From assembly GCA_000091205.1 (NCBI GenBank), contig AP006491.2: a stretch of DNA of 64,000 bases. The stretch is one strand, 5' to 3'. This document shows positions 27,639-61,421 of this stretch, piece after piece. Numbering within the stretch: the stretch's first letter is position 1; each line of letters starts with the position of its first letter. The notes under the pieces were generated by a model. The model saw only the letters and a list, made by a program, of their open reading frames with translations. It searched no databases and was not told the origin of the DNA. The DNA comes from Cyanidioschyzon merolae (lineage: Eukaryota). A program made the translations under genes and the position numbers.

Positions 27639-28135
27639 CCCGAGAACACGACCGGGAATCCCTAAACGAAATATGAATCCATAAGCCCATATTGCTGCAC
27701 TTTCATGTCAAGGCTATCCCTGGAGAGCATGCTCGGAACAAAAAATCTCGTGGTACGAACAGAGCGATCAGTGCTGTGCCACTTTAATCTCATATGCGCT
27801 GATAGACTTTCACATGCATTGCGTTCCACACCCAGGGGAATGGCATCAAATGCTTCTTCACGGTTGATAGTGGATGCGTTCGAAGTGCGCTCAGTTGAGG
27901 AAACAAAAATTCAAGGGAAACTTATGGACATGAAAGTCGGGGATCCTGGAGCCCGATCATCGCCGAGCGCCGACTAAAAACGAGAAAACCCTCTCCTCGC
28001 CGATCGTCGAGTGAAAAAGGGCAAGCGACAAAGAAGAAGAGAAGGAGAGCTTGACGAGAAAAGTGCTTTGCCCGAGGAGACAATGACGAGAATGCAGTGG
28101 CCATGAGGGCACCAGCTTGAGGACGCCTTGCACTG

Positions 28136-28348
28136 GTGAGTTCAAACAGCGACAATGAACGCAAGGAGTTCGTGAACCGAGACTTCACCGCCGCTATCTA
28201 TCTCAGAAGATGTGTGGAGCTGACCACGAGACCCGAGGAGCTGACGCCATCCAACTTCCTGGGTTACACTCTAATGCCCGCAGCGCACAAGGAAAAGCTG
28301 AAACCGTTCGCAGCGGGCCAGTCAAACAAGTCTAGGAGGCGTCCGTGA
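28136..28348 (+). pseudogene. TnpB/Fanzor-like RuvC-III C-terminal fragment (5'-truncated copy)
   Basis: KEFVNRDFTAAIYLRRCVELTTRPEELTPSNFLGYTL...KEKLKPFAAGQS parallels the C-terminus of the 55055-56128 ORF (MEFVNRDFNAASNIRRCAV...PELTRVNFVGQPL...GKLKPFVWGRS). An in-frame stop lies just upstream, at 28118-28120. Confidence 0.5.
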
Positions 28349-28360
28349 TTACATATGTAT
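28337..28360 (+). repeat. Perfect 10-bp-stem hairpin (GTGATTACAT-atgt-ATGTAATCAC) overlapping the stop codon of the Fanzor-like fragment
   Basis: Palindrome read directly from the sequence. Confidence 0.6.
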
Positions 28361-50664: not shown

Positions 50665-51180
50665 TCCGCTCCCGGGAATCGACATAAACGTTGTCTGGGG
50701 TACGCTAAGATTACCGTTGCTCTGCTCCTGATTTCTGTATTTCTGTATCTGGGAATTTGCGTATTCGCGTATCGGGGAATCGACATAAACGTTGTCTGGG
50801 ACACGCGTAGATTACCGCTGCTCTGCTCCTGATTTCTGTATTTCTGTATCTGCGAATTTGCGTATTTGCGTATCGGGGAATCGACACAAACGTTGTCTGG
50901 GACACGCGTAGATTACCGTTGCTCTGCTCCTGATTTCTGTATTTCTGTATCTGCGAATTTGCGTATTTGCGTATCGGGGAATCGACACAAACATTGTCTG
51001 GGGTACGCTAAGATTACCGTTGCTCTGCTCCTGATTTCTGTATTTCTGTATCTGCGAATTTGCGTATTTGCGTATCGGGGAATCGACATAAACGTTGTCT
51101 GGGGTACGCCTAGATTACCGTTGCTCCGCTCCTGATTTCTGTATTTCTGTATCTGCGAATTTGCGTATTTGCGTATCGCC
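50665..51180. repeat. Minisatellite, ~100-110-bp unit x ~5
   Basis: Repeating unit gggaatcgacataaacgttgtctgggg/acacgc(g/t)tagattaccgttgctctgctcctgatttctgtatttctgtatctgcgaatttgcgtatttgcgtatcg, with a few SNPs between copies. Confidence 0.85.
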
Positions 51181-54666: not shown

Positions 54667-54764
54667 AGGCCAGCGATCCCCGACTAGGCCTTTTTATCAG
54701 CACGCGGTGAAGCAGCCATCGATCCACGCCCTACTTCCAAGTTCCAAAACCCATAGATCTTCTC

Positions 54765-54810
54765 GGGTATGCTGGTGGTTTCATAATGTCTATCGTACGC
54801 CGAGCCTGCC
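54765..54810. repeat. ~45-bp dispersed repeat copy (left boundary of the AT-rich island)
   Basis: gctggtggtttcataatgtctatcgtacgccgagcctgccgtgagcg is ~75% identical to 57676-57722 (tctggtcgtttcatacgtcctagcatgtgccgagcctaccgaaagcg). Confidence 0.5.
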
Positions 54811-55054
54811 GTGAGCGTTTAAAATAGCGCGTAAAGCACCTCTGCAGTCGTGGCACGGAGACAGAACTGGGTTGCCATACCAGAGAGGGCGTCGGCTCGA
54901 GACCAAGCTCATCCATGCCAAAGCACACTAAGCCTATCCGAAACTGCGCCCTTGACCACCACCACCACCAGCAGCAGCAGCAGCAGCAGCCGCGAACGCT
55001 TTCCAAGCATCAAACGCTGCATAACCGGTGCACAGTAGCGGCGACCGACGCGAC

Positions 55055-56128
55055 CTAGACGAAATATCTCCCGCCGACATGCAGACGCCTAAAGGTCTTT
55101 AACGACCTGCCCCATACGAATGGCTTCAGCTTCCCCTTGTACAATTCGGCCCTGAGAGGTTGTCCAACAAAGTTGACTCGTGTCAACTCCGGGGCTCTCT
55201 TTGCCATTACTGCACATCTCCTGATATTGCTGGCGGCGTTAAAGTCCCGGTTCACAAACTCCATAAGTTTCTTGTCATTGATTGTACTTACTGATTCAAG
55301 TAGCCTTCGCATTTTCGCCCTCCTTTCCATTTGGTCGTCTGTCAGCCGTCCGTACTTTGCTATATCCTCAGGGCTCCGCTGGCACTTTTCCATATCGACC
55401 CTCTGGGGTGTACAACCCAGTTCATGGTGCGTATACGATGTTCGGAACTCATCTACAGGTATTGTAACAAAACGCCGTGCGCACTCTATGTACGTTCTCG
55501 TAGTTCGAGCTGGTGTACACCCGTTTTGGGTCTTCCAGCGCCCTGCTCCGTATGCTACTACGAGCCTCTGACTTTCATCCTCTTTGAGGGCACTCAACGG
55601 ACTGAAAAAGTTCGCGAACGCCCGCTGCCTCCCACAGCATAGATTCATACGCAAACGAGCACACCGGGGCTTTGTATACTCTTTCCACAGCGCCTCCCAG
55701 TGAGCAGCACGAACTTCACTGAACTCCCGAAAAGCATCAAAGTCCGCTCCGCGGCTCGTCACCTCGCTCAAGGCTTCCAGGTGATCCTTCATTCCTGAAT
55801 TCCATGTCTCAGTTTTCTTTCTTGCATTCCTTGTACCGGATTCTCGATAGTACCTTGCTCTCGAGAACCTCAACAGACGCATGTCTTTCTGACGCAAGTT
55901 GCCGGCAGTACCATCTTCCGCACGTTTGGGTACTGCGATGGTTATGATATTTGTGTTTCCGGGGTTCACACCTACCGCAAAGTCGTCACCGTGCACTTTC
56001 TGCATCGCAGGATCCGCCACCTTCTCATCTTCATGCTTTGTCACGGGCGCAGCCGAGGGCGGAACTGGACGATCCGCCTTCAAGCGCCGATAGCGTACAC
56101 ACATGGCTACTCCATCGGTTTCGATCAT
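55055..56128 (-). CDS. TnpB/Fanzor-like RuvC nuclease-fold ORF (eukaryotic OMEGA/IS605-OrfB homolog); RuvC-I Asp replaced by Asn
   Basis: RuvC-I-like FAVGVNPGNTNIITIA (cf. GIDPG); bridge and RuvC-II region LVVAYGAGRWKTQNGCTPARTTRTYIECARRFVTIPVDEFRTSYT (cf. vaiGdw...V..VdEyrTSk); degraded Zn-finger (GCTPQ...KCQRS); RuvC-III MEFVNRDFNAASNIRR (cf. nRDvNAAiNI). Sits in a distinctly AT-richer ~2.8-kb island. Confidence 0.55.
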   Translation of the reverse strand: MIETDGVAMCVRYRRLKADRPVPPSAAPVTKHEDEKVADPAMQKVHGDDFAVGVNPGNTNIITIAVPKRAEDGTAGNLRQKDMRLLRFSRARYYRESGTRNARKKTETWNSGMKDHLEALSEVTSRGADFDAFREFSEVRAAHWEALWKEYTKPRCARLRMNLCCGRQRAFANFFSPLSALKEDESQRLVVAYGAGRWKTQNGCTPARTTRTYIECARRFVTIPVDEFRTSYTHHELGCTPQRVDMEKCQRSPEDIAKYGRLTDDQMERRAKMRRLLESVSTINDKKLMEFVNRDFNAASNIRRCAVMAKRAPELTRVNFVGQPLRAELYKGKLKPFVWGRSLKTFRRLHVGGRYFV

Positions 56129-56339
56129 CCCAGTGAGTACTTTTGTTTGCTCACTTTGAGACGTTTGAAATCGAAGATATGCTTCCAGTACGTCTCCCGG
56201 TTTTCACCGGAGAACTCCTACCTGTTAACATTGAACTCGGGACTGGTCTCCTTTATGATGCCTTGGAGGACTCTGGAGCTGATAGTCACAAAATGTGACT
56301 TGATGGTGCACAACGGAACGCCATTGAAGCGCTTACCCA

Positions 56340-57101
56340 TTAGGAGAGCCTTCCGTCCCTCCCACTCTTCATGTTTTCCTCTCTCAGCTTCATCTCCGCC
56401 TTGCGTTCGAGTTCTCGATTCAGGAATACGAAATAGAGCAGGATGATGTGATAACATCTTTTATCATCTTTTTTTTTCATATCTGATGCCTTTTCTGCTG
56501 GATTCGCCATTCCCAAGACTGGACAGTGCTCTTGTACAACCGCACGGATTACAGAAGCTTCATTCGTGCTCTCGTTTGGCGCCTTCTTGTCGACAAAATC
56601 GATCTCATCTTCATGCTTGCGATCGTTCGTGATGCCGTTGATAATCGCCCATATTCCTTTGCGAGAGATGCACGGGTAACGTGCAAACACGGCGCGTATC
56701 ATGAAACGTTCGAGGTTCATAGTCGAATGGTTCTTCAGGTTCGTGATGTACTTCATCGTTCCGTATATGTAAATATGACGGTCACCCCTGTATCGAGTAC
56801 CGTTGAAGCTGTAGAAGGGATGTTTTTCGTGGAGGGCGTGAACCCACTCATTTTCCTTTCGCGTTGCCTCTGTAGCAAGCATGAGGTGACGAATAAAGAT
56901 CATGTCGAAGAACTCGTCCGGAATCTCGACCGTTTCCATGTGCTTCACGTCGTGATACATCTCACTCCCCGAATGCATCAGTCCTGACGACGCCTTGACG
57001 ATGGTCTTGGAGTACGAGTCGACACGGTTCCTAATGGCCTCTCGCAACTTTTCCTTGTACGGATCCTGGATATGTTCAAGAAGAAAGCTTTTCGCCACCA
57101 T
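56340..57101 (-). CDS. Hypothetical ORF directly upstream (same strand) of the Fanzor-like ORF; possibly its N-terminal part separated by an intron or frameshift, or an accessory gene
   Basis: 253-aa ORF with the same AT-rich composition as the Fanzor-like ORF; KLREAIRNRV weakly recalls the TnpB WED-domain (R.vyN..l) motif. By-eye similarity to ORF 26934-27638. Confidence 0.25.
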   Translation of the reverse strand: MVAKSFLLEHIQDPYKEKLREAIRNRVDSYSKTIVKASSGLMHSGSEMYHDVKHMETVEIPDEFFDMIFIRHLMLATEATRKENEWVHALHEKHPFYSFNGTRYRGDRHIYIYGTMKYITNLKNHSTMNLERFMIRAVFARYPCISRKGIWAIINGITNDRKHEDEIDFVDKKAPNESTNEASVIRAVVQEHCPVLGMANPAEKASDMKKKDDKRCYHIILLYFVFLNRELERKAEMKLREENMKSGRDGRLS

Positions 57102-57662
57102 CTCGTCGTACAGCCGTCTTTCTTGTCGCCTTCGACATAGGGCCTCTCCCGTTTTGATTCTTTCTCTCTTCCGTTTCTTCTGGACTTGGAATTTTTTTTG
57201 TTTTTTCTGGTAGCCGGCGACACTGGGCCTCCAGGATTGTCGACTTGCTCCTACATAACTTTCCTTTTTTAGTTTTTTTAAAAAGAATACTCTTTAAACG
57301 CTTCTCTTATATACTGCGAAAAAACACTCGAGTATTTTTACTTGAGGGTTGAAACAGAAATGAACTGAAAACTATACTTTGCTACGACCTCAACGGAAAT
57401 CCGACTTTTACAGCTGAGCAACACGCTCCTGCTCAGGATCACGTTTCCCTTCAACAGCGGCTTACGTGTCGCGTCTCACGCCTGCCTGATCCCCCAGTTG
57501 CGCTCACCGGGCGCGATTCTCTTTTTCATAGACAAGACGTTTACTTGTGCCAGCATTCTCCGATTACGCGCATTTTTCTTTTCTTACCATTTTTTATGTG
57601 TTTTTTTCAGTGTGCGGTGACGTATCCATCAACCCCCTACTCCCAAGTTACATCATCTAAAC

Positions 57663-57722
57663 TTCTTCTCTGATATTCTGGTCGTTTCATACGTCCTAGC
57701 ATGTGCCGAGCCTACCGAAAGC
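57663..57722. repeat. ~35-45-bp repeat: direct with 54765-54810, inverted with 61130-61197
   Basis: acttcttctctgatattctggtcgtttcatacgtcctag has a reverse-complement match at 61160-61197 (acttcttctcGgatattctggtcgtttcatacgtccta, 1 mismatch in 37 bp). Confidence 0.7.
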
Positions 57723-57749
57723 GACAGCAATGGCGCCTATAGAACATGC

Positions 57750-60700
57750 GCTGCAATGCATTGCATGCGCCGCCAAGACCAAGCCCGGAGACTAACCAAC
57801 AAGTCACTTGCAGCCTTCCGAGAAATGATAACGAATTATCAGTACATTAACGAAGAAGAGACACCAATAGAGGACTGTACAATAGGAAAAGAGACCCAAC
57901 CAGATACGGAGAAGGAGGCACAAAGTCCTCATGATCCACTTAGATGCAAAATATCCAGAGAGAGCAGCTCAGGAAAGAGCCCGAAGAAGAAGAAGGCCAA
58001 CGAGAAAAAATAGATGAATAGAAAAAAGAACTCCCGAACGAGCCCATCACAACTTATTCCCCGGAAAGAGCACCCCAGCGGGAACTCAAGAAAACCGTCA
58101 CCAAACCCAGTCACCTGCTCACAGCGCTGAAGATCCGAAATGCCGTGCATGCAAATCTTTAGACCAATTGGCACGCGAGTTTGTAGATGGGAATCAGAAG
58201 ACTGCCAGAGAACTGGGACTGCTTGCACCAGATCGCAACAGTTTCAAACCTCAGTACCTCAAACGACGTACCAAAACTCGGATTGTTGAATGCTACCGAC
58301 TCAACAAGATCCTCAACCGCACCGACATACGCACCAACGCCGGAGACAAGGAAGCGAAGGCAGCGCTACCGGCGCTACAGGCACAACATGAGGACGCTAT
58401 CAAAAGAAAGAAGAAACTTTCCAGAGAAGACAAACGAGAGGATCGAAACCGCAAAATCGACTCCCTGACGGAATTTATGCTCGAGAGCACCAACGAAGAT
58501 GAGACCTGGCGCTCCATTCGATCGAGACTGGACCCACCAAAAAAGTGCCTGGGGCTCACACCAATCGTTTATAAGGAAGCGCTGAGGACGGAGCGTGCCT
58601 CAGTGAATGAGGCCTGGACGGACCACGGCACAGAGCTGCATGAAGACGCAACTGGGCACTGCCGAAACCGAATCTATTGGCACCAATATGCTGCACAACT
58701 ACCGCGCCTCGACCCGGTACCGGAATGGAACGACCCAATCTTCTGGCCTGAATCTGTTCGGGCCCTGCTATGCTCAAGCAACCGCAAAACACCTGGCATT
58801 GACGGTATCCCTGCGGAGTGGATGAAACTGGTGACCCCAAAAGACGAGACAACAGGGACACCATCGATACCAGATGAACCTGACACAATCTTAGGCAAAC
58901 GCCTTGTGGAGCTCATTCAACGTATGTTCGAAGAAGCGTACATCCCTGATATATGGAGGACTGTCGAGGTCGCACCGATCCTCAAAAAGGACTCCCACAC
59001 ACACAAAGACATGAACATCTACCGGACTATTCGCCTCATCCTGTCAATCATGAATCTACTTTGCGCCATGCTCACGAACCGGATCCAGAGGCGCCTCGAG
59101 GAACGCAAGTTCTTCGCCCCAGAACAGGCTGGATTCCGGAGCCGCGATGAGTGCATGAACCATGCCCTGACCCTCATTGAAGTGGCGCAACGTCGCTTTA
59201 TTCGTGACCGACAACCAACTTACGTATGCTTCACCGACTTCCGAAAGGTCTTTGACACGGTCCCGCATGATGCTCTCTTTTTGAAGATGGAACGAGCCGG
59301 AGTCTCCAGAAAGTGCTTAGCGTTCTTCCGTGCGCTCTATGCAGACTCGTGGATGCGCATCCGACTGGGCGACAGCTCAAGAACCCCTTGTATAAGAATA
59401 CGCCGTGGACTACAAAAGGGCGAGCGCGCATCCCCGCTCCTTTTCAACATCTTCATCAACGATCCGCTGAAAAACTGCAGACAATACGGGCTTGAGGTGC
59501 CGTGGATAGACTGGGGAGATGCCCGATGAGGAGCCCTCACATAGGAACCGCCTCGCAGGCCTTCTACTTGCGGACGATGTCGTGCTGTTGGCACCCGCCC
59601 CGGAAACGCTTGCGGCTAGCATGCAACAAGTCAGCACCTGGGTCGATCGCTGGGAGATGAACGTAGGAGCATCGAAGTGCGGCGTCATGGCCATCCATGG
59701 AGACTCGCAGCGCATTCGCAATCGCTCGTGGCGGTTGCAGAATCAGGAAATTCCGATCGTGGAAAACTATCGCTACCTGGGGGTCGGTCTAACGCCGACG
59801 CTCGACGAAAAGGCACACGTCGACGAGATGATCGCCAAGATGCATAGACGTACAGCGATCGCACGTCCATTCCCATCCGACCCCTCTATCTGCATAGCAA
59901 TTCGTACCAGGGCACGAAGGATGTGTATCATCCAGCCTGCGACCTGGGGTGCTGAGTGATGCGGCATGAACCACACAAATGCCTCGCGTCCGCAGACAGC
60001 CGCCAACAGGGCAATGCGACTCGTTGTCGTTGTTTGATGCTCAGTGCAGAGCAGAGCAACCACCGCGCTGGCACTCGGACTTGAACTCCAAATACCCTCG
60101 ATAGAAGCGATAGCAGCAGGCTGCCGGGCACGTATATGGGCCAAAAGGGTCCACCAAGCGCACCTGGTTCAGTCGGAGTTTCATGCAAACCCCAACGCAC
60201 CGCAAGATCACTTGGATGAAACCAACGCATATTTGGCTGAAGCGCCTCTTAGGCGAAAATGCGCTCGAATCGTTCCCCAGGAATGTAGAAGACTTCAGAC
60301 GCCTGAAGCGAACGGTCCAAACGCCAATATGGGAAAGTAGACACGGTACCAGTCGCGCGAGTAACGCCGGCTTGACTCTATACCGGAAATAGAACCTATT
60401 ATACACATGCAAGTACTGGTTGGAGGCGCTGGAATTCCCCGGACTTGCTCGAGGTACCCAGTGGCTCGCCAAAATCCGCGTTGGTGGCTTCTGGCTACCA
60501 GCACCGGCTCTAAGCCGTATAGGAATACTGGAATCGCACTGGGAGTCACACTGTCCCTGCTGTGGAGACGAGAGCCCCCGAGACGCTGACACATTTAGGC
60601 CTACAGTGCCCGCACTGGAAGCAGGAGCGCAGCGAGCTCCTTGGAGGACAGCAGCAGCTGGGCATCACCATGATAGTCGAAGGCCGGACACTCACTCTGA

Positions 60701-61100
60701 GTGTAGCACTGGCAACTGGTGGTCCGCTAACGGAGCCTCAGCGCTCATTAATGGCGAACAAACGCAAATGCTACCTTCTAGGCGGAAGGTCCAACGAATC
60801 GGATGCGCATACGGGTCCAGTGCTCTCTGCGTCTACCCACTGTGGTGGGTTTCAAGCACAAACCCGCATTGCCAACCGACAACAACGCGCTCCATGCATG
60901 ACCAGGAAGGAGAGAGGCAGCTCCCAGAATTCATCCTAACAACCAAGTTTCTCCAGCGTGTCGTGCAGCGAAGGCAAGCCTCCATCCGCAGACTGTCCGA
61001 GCACGAACTGACGACGAGACCCGATTCTACGTCGGGTGAAGCACGTCTCGAGCCGACGCCCTCTGAGGTATAGAAAAGCTGTTCTAGCTCTATGAACTAT
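57750..61100 (+). mobile_element. Non-LTR (LINE) retrotransposon remnant, 5'-truncated and frameshifted
   Basis: Contains RT ORFs 58168-59529 and 59519-59959 (next entry) and a C-terminal Cys/His motif in ORFs 60420-61073 and 60562-60939 (HCPCCGDES; ETLTHLGLQCPHWKQERSEL, cf. the non-LTR ORF2 tail E..EH.L..CP....R). No APE endonuclease is visible upstream. Confidence 0.75.
58168..59959 (+). pseudogene. LINE reverse transcriptase (RT domains 0-7) interrupted by a frameshift near 59520
   Basis: RT motifs: TPGIDGIPAEW (motif 0/1), ILKKDSHTHKDMNIYRTIRLILSIMNL, FFAPEQAGFRSRDECMNHALTL, VCFTDFRKVFDTVPHD (motif A), RGLQKGERASPLLFNIFINDPLK (motif B), LLADDVVLLA (motif C, FADD-type) in the next frame. 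Confidence 0.8.
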
Positions 61101-61129
61101 CTGCTCCAGCATTTAAGGCGCAAAGGCGG

Positions 61130-61197
61130 ATACGGAGGGGCAGGTACAAGGCACACACAATAGGACGTATGAAACGACCAGAATATCCGAGAAGAAG
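61130..61197. repeat. Inverted copy of the 57663-57722 repeat (right boundary of the LINE-containing segment)
   Basis: See the 57663-57722 entry. Confidence 0.7.
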
Positions 61198-61421
61198 TAT
61201 AGGTAATCTAACTTGGAGGGAGGGGGTTTTATGGATACTTCGCTGCGCACTGTAAAAAAAAGTGAGCAAAGAAAAGTGTGAAAAGAAACATACGCCCATT
61301 CGCCTCCACAAAGGCGCTGCGCGCACACAATACAGCGGCTGCAGCGGCTGCAGCATCATCCGCAGCGCTTAACGGCCTCTGTTCGTGTCCTCGGTGTGAC
61401 GATTCTTGAGGTACGGTATCC

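Follow-up and report, generated by a model that had tools for sequence, protein, structure and literature searches.

An open reading frame on the minus strand of a 64-kb stretch of Cyanidioschyzon merolae DNA, here called the window, raises the question of what has become of a predicted eukaryotic RNA-guided nuclease with an altered catalytic site. The frame, listed among the open reading frames of the window at 55055..56128 with an ATG start and 357 codons, was originally predicted to encode a near-complete TnpB/Fanzor-like protein in which asparagine replaces the first RuvC aspartate, and the copy was suggested to be inactivated, domesticated or decaying. Of these three, decaying is favored. 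The region 54995-57517 on the minus strand is very probably one dead copy of the Fanzor1 family CMe-1A, broken in three frames (Table 1).

The frame and the motifs quoted for it are present as predicted. GVNPGNT lies at residues 53-59 (window 55972-55952), VVAYGAG at residues 190-196, VDEFRTS at residues 225-231, and VNRDFNAASNI at residues 292-302. The asparagine in place of aspartate at RuvC-I is real, with the codon AAC at 55966-55964. The element was also said to sit in an AT-richer island, and the GC content is indeed 0.46-0.52 over 55-58 kb (0.515, 0.489, and 0.457 in the three successive kilobases) compared to about 0.55-0.62 in the rest of the window. The window is nuclear DNA, and six of its long frames match C. 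merolae 10D proteins exactly (BAM80075, 80078, 80085, 80086, 80090, and 80094). The Pfam domains of the neighboring genes (cyclin, condensin II H2, calnexin, G6PD, PPR, and diaminopimelate decarboxylase) are those expected of a eukaryote with few introns. The protein collection includes neighboring 10D genes but has no entry for the exact 357-aa product.

Table 1. Positions of the Fanzor1 copy, its catalytic residues, and the surrounding repeats within the window
Position	Strand	Feature	Basis
27846..28357	+	Fragment of the Fanzor1 family, older and internally deleted; a piece of the leader and the RuvC-III/C-tail remain; 48% aa identity	
36549..36903	-	Fragment of the Fanzor1 family, older; from the TNB/RuvC-III region; 37-40% aa identity	
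50120..50202	-	Short fragment of the Fanzor1 family, about 73-75% nt identity to the 3' part of the core	
54692..54904	-	Repeat R, third copy; lies between the 3' end of the Fanzor copy and the gene for diaminopimelate decarboxylase	
54995..55054	-	3' untranslated end; in relatives a small hairpin, ACTACTGTACAC, then a terminal hairpin of about 19 bp; degraded in the window	
55055..56128	-	C-terminal half of the Fanzor1 pseudogene (WED end, RuvC-I, REC insertion, RuvC-II, TNB remnant, RuvC-III, C-tail)	Homology, fold
55244..55246	-	Asp295, codon GAC, in VNRDFNAASNI; RuvC-III Asp, retained	
55448..55450	-	Glu227, codon GAG, in VDEFRTS; catalytic Glu, retained	
55964..55966	-	Asn55, codon AAC, at the first catalytic Asp of RuvC (RuvC-I); family consensus GADPGNTN; corresponds to SpuFz1 D383	Alignment; SpuFz1 triad from PMC11423790
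56129..56373	-	Middle pseudogene segment, second frame; flanked by 1-nt deletions (about 56373-56375 and about 56139-56141); in-frame TAG at 56220-56218	Alignment to full-length relatives
56374..57209	-	N-terminal segment, third frame, includes ORF 56340..57101; begins with the K/R-rich stretch QKKQKKFQVQKKRKRERIK	
57210..57517	-	5' leader of the repeated core unit, conserved; most other copies are no longer homologous upstream of 57517	
57514..57754	-	Piece of repeat R that also occurs in the 3' untranslated end of the neighboring LINE; directly upstream of the core, same orientation	
57832..61295	+	R2-like non-LTR retrotransposon, decayed and lying head-to-head with the Fanzor copy	

Profile searches and a predicted structure place the family in Fanzor1. 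Searches with the window protein alone gave no match in Pfam, NCBIfam, or PDB, and a profile built from close relatives only (A1) had no match in PDB. Homologs are nevertheless numerous, well beyond chance: 302 proteins are 57-98% identical to the window frame, all of them from JGI/ENA metagenomes and some weakly tagged as PF26935 (DUF8286). In hot-spring metagenome contigs the related stretches number at least 419. When 1.84 billion cluster representatives were searched exhaustively with a profile, 1384 relatives reached E<=1e-3, many with lengths of 600-700 aa, and 76 diverse sequences among these were chosen for a second alignment (A2). The window frame is 65-98% identical to members of the family. 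Four residues of A2 are invariant or nearly so (D314, G316, E486, and D555 in the numbering of the relative P0029; n=76), and the conserved residues fall in GxDPGR, VDEFRTS, and NRDxNAAxNI. The only sequences in PDB matched by the A2 profile are three Fanzor1 proteins, those of Parasitella parasitica (9cf0, E=3.9e-20), Spizellomyces punctatus (8gkh, E=9.5e-12), and Guillardia theta (9cer, E=1.1e-6), and the motifs DPG(R/N), DE(F/Y)(R/K)TS, and nRD.NAA are in register in these matches. The window frame and its close relatives have no Pfam OrfB_IS605 or Cas12f1-like_TNB domain above the gathering score; PF07282 is present below threshold in two distant relatives (E=0.0023 and 0.071).

The structure comparison suggested along with the original prediction points in the same direction. 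AlphaFold gave an unusable model of the window frame itself with a shallow alignment (pLDDT 39). With A2 as input, the relative P0029, which has 593 aa and is 67% identical to the window frame, was modeled with a pLDDT of 84.6 and a pTM of 0.79. The seven best Foldseek matches of this model in PDB are Fanzor1 chains (E from 8e-14 to 1e-9), with TM scores up to 0.61 over about 600 columns, and Cas12 and TnpB rank after them at E>=8e-3. The model has the parts of the Fanzor/TnpB fold: WED, REC, a split RuvC RNase-H core, and a TNB insertion. A TnpB/Fanzor-like identity had been proposed on motif order, and both a profile match to solved Fanzor1 structures and a Fanzor1 fold with a RuvC core have therefore been found for it. 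The RuvC triad is D-E-D in the family (D314, E486, and D555) and N-E-D in the window copy, so the window copy is a Fanzor1 member by descent and not a functional member. By homology, the ancestral protein would have been a RuvC DNA endonuclease that derived from TnpB and was guided by an omega-RNA.

The solved Fanzor1 proteins SpuFz1 (8gkh, 9ceu-9cez), PpFz1 (9cf0-9cf3), and GtFz1 (9cer-9cet) share the overall fold of the C. merolae clade, with TM scores of about 0.5-0.6 over the full length. They also share the D-E-D triad, with the glutamate in DE(F/Y)(R/K)TS just before the TNB. The homology is at the profile level, and sequence identity is only 13-16%. Prokaryotic TnpB (ISDra2 TnpB, 8h1j; IS200/IS605) has the same RuvC core and motif order, and TnpB elements resemble the C. 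merolae family in having a single nuclease gene, no terminal inverted repeats (TIRs), and hairpins near their ends. However, the fold match to TnpB is much weaker (Foldseek E=1e-2), and the C. merolae protein is about twice the length of TnpB with an N-terminal half of the eukaryotic type. Fanzor1 proteins can tolerate asparagine at their third catalytic position, where it is natural in GtFz1 (N658) and was introduced in SpuFz1 (D606N) (Xu et al. 2024, PMC11423790). In contrast, the asparagine of the window copy is at the first catalytic position.

One difference from the solved proteins involves the zinc ribbon. The solved Fanzor1 proteins have a CxxC...C..C ribbon in the TNB, and a C4 zinc ribbon between [TS][TS] and RD has been called strictly conserved in TnpB/Fanzor (Bao & Jurka, PMC3627910). 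The zinc finger of the window frame had rightly been described as a remnant, and the whole clade (1384 representatives, E<=1e-3) lacks the C4 ribbon. Of 58 relatives that could be scored, 56 have no CxxC in the 20 residues that follow DEFRTS, and the Cys positions of PpFz1 and SpuFz1 are replaced in the C. merolae clade. One Cys column (GLLWC) is common, being found in 54/76 relatives, and no other is. A distant member of the clade without the ribbon is known from the volvocine green alga Tetrabaena socialis (PNH08370.1). A large clade lacking a ribbon that was thought to be strictly conserved is a side result that may be of use for work on Fanzor evolution.

The Fanzor1 family of the window has been known since 2013. 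Bao & Jurka (Mob DNA 4:12, PMC3627910) described CMe-1A as one Fanzor1 family in C. merolae with about 150 copies that are about 80% identical to a consensus of about 3 kb. They found no TIRs, could not determine target-site duplications, and left its class unknown. Some copies were still intact, and the authors remarked on long-lasting coding capacity. The 5' 635 bp of CMe-1A is 95% identical to the repeat TE-N2_CMe. The window element is about 80% identical in nucleotide sequence to dozens of copies with one common 3' end, and it matches CMe-1A by description: the host, the Fanzor1-type protein, the high copy number at about 80% identity, a unit of about 2.5-3 kb, and the lack of TIRs and of determinable target-site duplications are the same, with no known difference, the window copy being one decayed member. 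Both also share their 5' part with another repeat. The high interest originally attached to the locus does not hold, since the family was already published. As one of about 150 decayed copies of an element in a fully sequenced model alga, the window copy matters little as such, and the change from Asp to Asn is ordinary pseudogene decay and no new catalytic variant.

The state of the window copy becomes clear when full-length relatives are aligned to it with tblastn. They align in three frames, and they carry a sense codon where the window has the TAG at 56220-56218. The description of the 357-aa frame as near-complete is right for the RuvC/TNB half and wrong for the protein as a whole, as full-length relatives extend over the upstream frame 56340..57101. 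No in-frame ATG was found upstream of the N-terminal segment (56374..57209). When the three segments are stitched together, the conceptual protein has 718 aa and differs at five of the ten columns that are invariant in A2 (D188S, F236L, D314N, K426R, and P467R). Many near-invariant columns are also changed, including H250R, W415C, Y423C, L500P, and G534R.

Another explanation is that the gene is intact, the frameshifts being introns, sequencing errors, or programmed frameshifts, and that a full-length Fanzor1 with asparagine at RuvC-I is made. The three segments are collinear and together give the conceptual protein, and both shifts are located in A-runs, where sequencing error or slippage is possible. 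However, the metagenome contig L004, which is an independent assembly of the same locus, matches the window at 99% identity through the second frameshift, with the same ORF start. The in-frame stop, the loss of many invariant residues, and the size of the deletions, which are single bases and leave no space for an intron, also count against an intact gene. Introns are very few in C. merolae. An intact gene is very unlikely.

The asparagine at RuvC-I is a derived state that arose by a change from GAC to AAC. Asp is the first RuvC-I residue in 62 of 68 relatives, and Asn is restricted to the near-identical copies of the window element and one other copy; this distribution indicates that Asn is derived. 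It had been proposed that the three other fragments in the window could show whether Asn is ancestral. All three fragments exist, giving four copies or fragments of the family within 64 kb. They span C-terminal and leader parts and do not reach RuvC-I, so the ancestral residue cannot be read from them and the wider family was used instead.

The closest sequences to the window copy show no sign of constraint. L004 and a second contig, L005, differ from the window at less than 1% of positions in the stretch of the 357-aa frame, and all nine codon differences are nonsynonymous (9 nonsynonymous, 0 synonymous). The frame is also open in both contigs. That a frame of about 1 kb stays open is somewhat unexpected for neutrally evolving DNA and counts against the pseudogene reading, although the two contigs are this close to the window. 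The 3' terminal hairpin has a folding z of +1.08 in the window, versus -2.7 to -5.3 in relatives. Taken together, the frameshifts, the TAG, the lost invariant residues, the 9:0 changes, and the degraded hairpin indicate a decaying pseudogene, and the window copy presumably gives no functional product. L005 (Ga0078972_1004566) is the closest other copy to window 54940-57407, at 5% distance, and shares the asparagine at RuvC-I. Upstream of the equivalent of 57407 its sequence is unrelated to the window, and it is either a recent 5'-shortened paralog or a rearranged ortholog.

Domestication is very unlikely. The 357-aa frame would then be expressed as an RNA-guided DNA-binding or regulatory protein unable to cut, with an adaptive inactivating change from Asp to Asn, like the nuclease-dead derivatives of TnpB. 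The open frame with an ATG in the window, L004, and L005 and the retention of the catalytic Glu and third Asp are consistent with this. However, the frame lacks the N-terminal WED/REC half, which sits upstream in other frames and with a stop. Several clade-invariant residues other than the Asp are lost, the recent changes are all nonsynonymous, and the 3' hairpin region is degraded. The asparagine is confined to near-identical copies and one other, and the window copy is one among about 150 that are similarly decayed (PMC3627910). 
In the favored reading, the ancestral element encoded a Fanzor1 of about 720 aa with a D-E-D site at GADPG, VDEFRTS, and NRDFNAA. Two single-base deletions have split the window copy into three frames, a premature TAG is present, and the surviving 357-aa frame represents the RuvC/TNB half only. 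The first catalytic Asp has become Asn as part of general neutral decay.

Across the family, third codon positions differ by 0.25 between copies, compared to 0.11-0.13 for first and second positions. This difference of about twofold indicates that much of the divergence arose while the protein was under selection, in agreement with the long-lasting coding capacity noted by Bao & Jurka. A complete frame was found in none of 80 metagenome loci; the best is L017, with an uninterrupted frame from the REC region onward. Distances between distinct copies are 13-18% and form a star-like pattern.

The 3' end of the family has two hairpins. The copies all end about 90 nt past the stop codon. In relatives a small hairpin (GGCGGG-TTT-CTCGCC) precedes the conserved ACTACTGTACAC, after which comes a terminal hairpin with as many as 19 bp (e.g. 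CACCGTTGGCGTCGTTCGA-CTT-TCGAACGGCGTTGATGGTG); a second sequence variant also folds. The terminal hairpin is located exactly where the homology between copies stops (L074:1770-1812, L083:7252-7292, L031:7096-7146, and others). The equivalent in the window is 54995-55030. The GGTG-rich sequence after the 3' hairpin was considered as a LINE-like microsatellite tail, and folding showed it to be the 3' arm of the hairpin of about 19 bp. The terminal hairpin may be an omega-RNA stem, a recognition stem for reverse transcriptase, or a rolling-circle terminator.

An omega-RNA at the 3' end, which had been suggested as something to look for, is a plausible candidate. In the hand-drawn hairpin 67.7% of cells are paired, compared to 35-52% when the alignment is slid. 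Covariation in this hairpin was not above that of shuffles, and RNAalifold gave no consensus structure for the 3' region. Rfam had no match for it, and no extra conservation of third codon positions, as an overlapping RNA might impose, was found near the 3' end. The strong terminal hairpin of the relatives at the end of homology is a side result that is possibly useful for work on Fanzor evolution. Directly after the degraded 3' end of the window copy is a microsatellite at 54950-54990, which reads (GCT)n(GGT)n along the minus strand and contains (CAG)7 along the plus strand. A repeat R fragment comes next, and beyond it the gene for diaminopimelate decarboxylase begins.

The 5' boundary of the core is sharp at 57517, with at least four different upstream modules (loci L002, L008, L013, L081, L063, L067, L078, L083, L041, and L012). 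The first is a LINE 3' end in tandem with the core, and the second a complete LINE 5' end that is head-to-head with it at one junction. The others are a TE-N2-like module with repeat R in the opposite orientation and an unrelated leader of 550-630 bp. Repeat R is probably shared with TE-N2_CMe. The LINE next to the window copy is 92% identical to a copy in L002. Its reverse transcriptase is split by a frameshift at about 59520 into 58168..59529 and 59519..59959, and the best PDB matches of this enzyme are R2 proteins. A C-terminal CPCCG motif lies near 60550, and the LINE ends in repeat R at 61009-61295.

These associations bear on how the family moves. CMe-1A could have spread by retrotransposition and not as a DNA transposon, either carried at or co-copied with the 3' end of the neighboring R2-like LINE, or mobilized in trans by the reverse transcriptase of this LINE through the 3' hairpin; this is a possible explanation, though a doubtful one. 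In its favor, all copies have one common 3' end at the strong terminal hairpin, there are no TIRs, and the reverse transcriptase of the neighboring LINE is R2-like. At five distinct loci (the window, L063/64, L067, L078, and L083) LINE 3' sequence adjoins the core on its upstream side, with the orientation of the core, and the points at which the LINE sequence starts differ among these loci (60214, 60472, 60773, at least 60061, and within R). At L078 the order is LINE 5' UTR, LINE C-terminus, and Fanzor core. A LINE 5' end is head-to-head with the 5' boundary of the core at the same junction in four to five loci, as twin priming of two RNAs would give. L005 can be added as a 5'-shortened close relative of the window copy.

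Other observations speak against retrotransposition. There is no poly(A) and there are no clear target-site duplications; a search at four well-bounded copies gave one weak candidate only, a 10-bp sequence matching at 8/10 positions in L083. In the window, the LINE stops at 61295 and includes no Fanzor part. The upstream modules, at least four in number, that meet the core at 57517 fit equally well with site-preferring insertion, either of other elements beside the core or of the core beside them. The star-like core distances are a further difficulty, since the LINE-linked copies are then not demonstrably one lineage. Several apparent 5' truncations are internal deletions, with the leader still upstream, and the interpretation of the variable 5' ends inside the frame as 5' truncations largely does not hold.

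No TIRs or asymmetric TIRs of the Helitron2 type were consistent across four copies. No empty site was found; every contig with the flanking G6PD gene breaks off at the repeat. The Helitron2-borne Fanzor1 elements of Chlamydomonas (CRe-1/2/3; PMC3627910) resemble the C. merolae family in having a 3'-terminal hairpin, in carrying a hairpin-forming sequence close to the 5' end of their core, and in lacking TIRs. However, their asymmetric terminal inverted repeats were not found in the C. merolae family, which has no RepHel gene near any copy and no recognized 3' end of the CTRR type.

The recurring LINE-Fanzor junctions could thus result from RNA co-mobilization or from site-preferring insertion. 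Their precision bears on how Fanzor elements without a transposase move. If spread with the LINE through an RNA intermediate is true, it would resolve the class of the family, which was left unknown in 2013, and a lineage of RNA-guided nucleases would then be found naturally paired with a target-primed reverse transcriptase.

Two other kinds of repeats were observed. Tandem acidic repeats of about 25 aa, in one to four units (e.g. KHEEKKEASLETQKVQDNVLVVDA), are found before GADPGNT in P0011, P0012, P0023, P0029, and L017, and the window copy has one unit upstream of RuvC-I. The AlphaFold model of P0029 is disordered at these repeats (residues 259-289). Elsewhere in the window, a 101-bp unit is repeated 5.0 times with 95% matches at 50674-51178. 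The orthologous contig L004 appears to have more of these units, so their copy number varies between strains.
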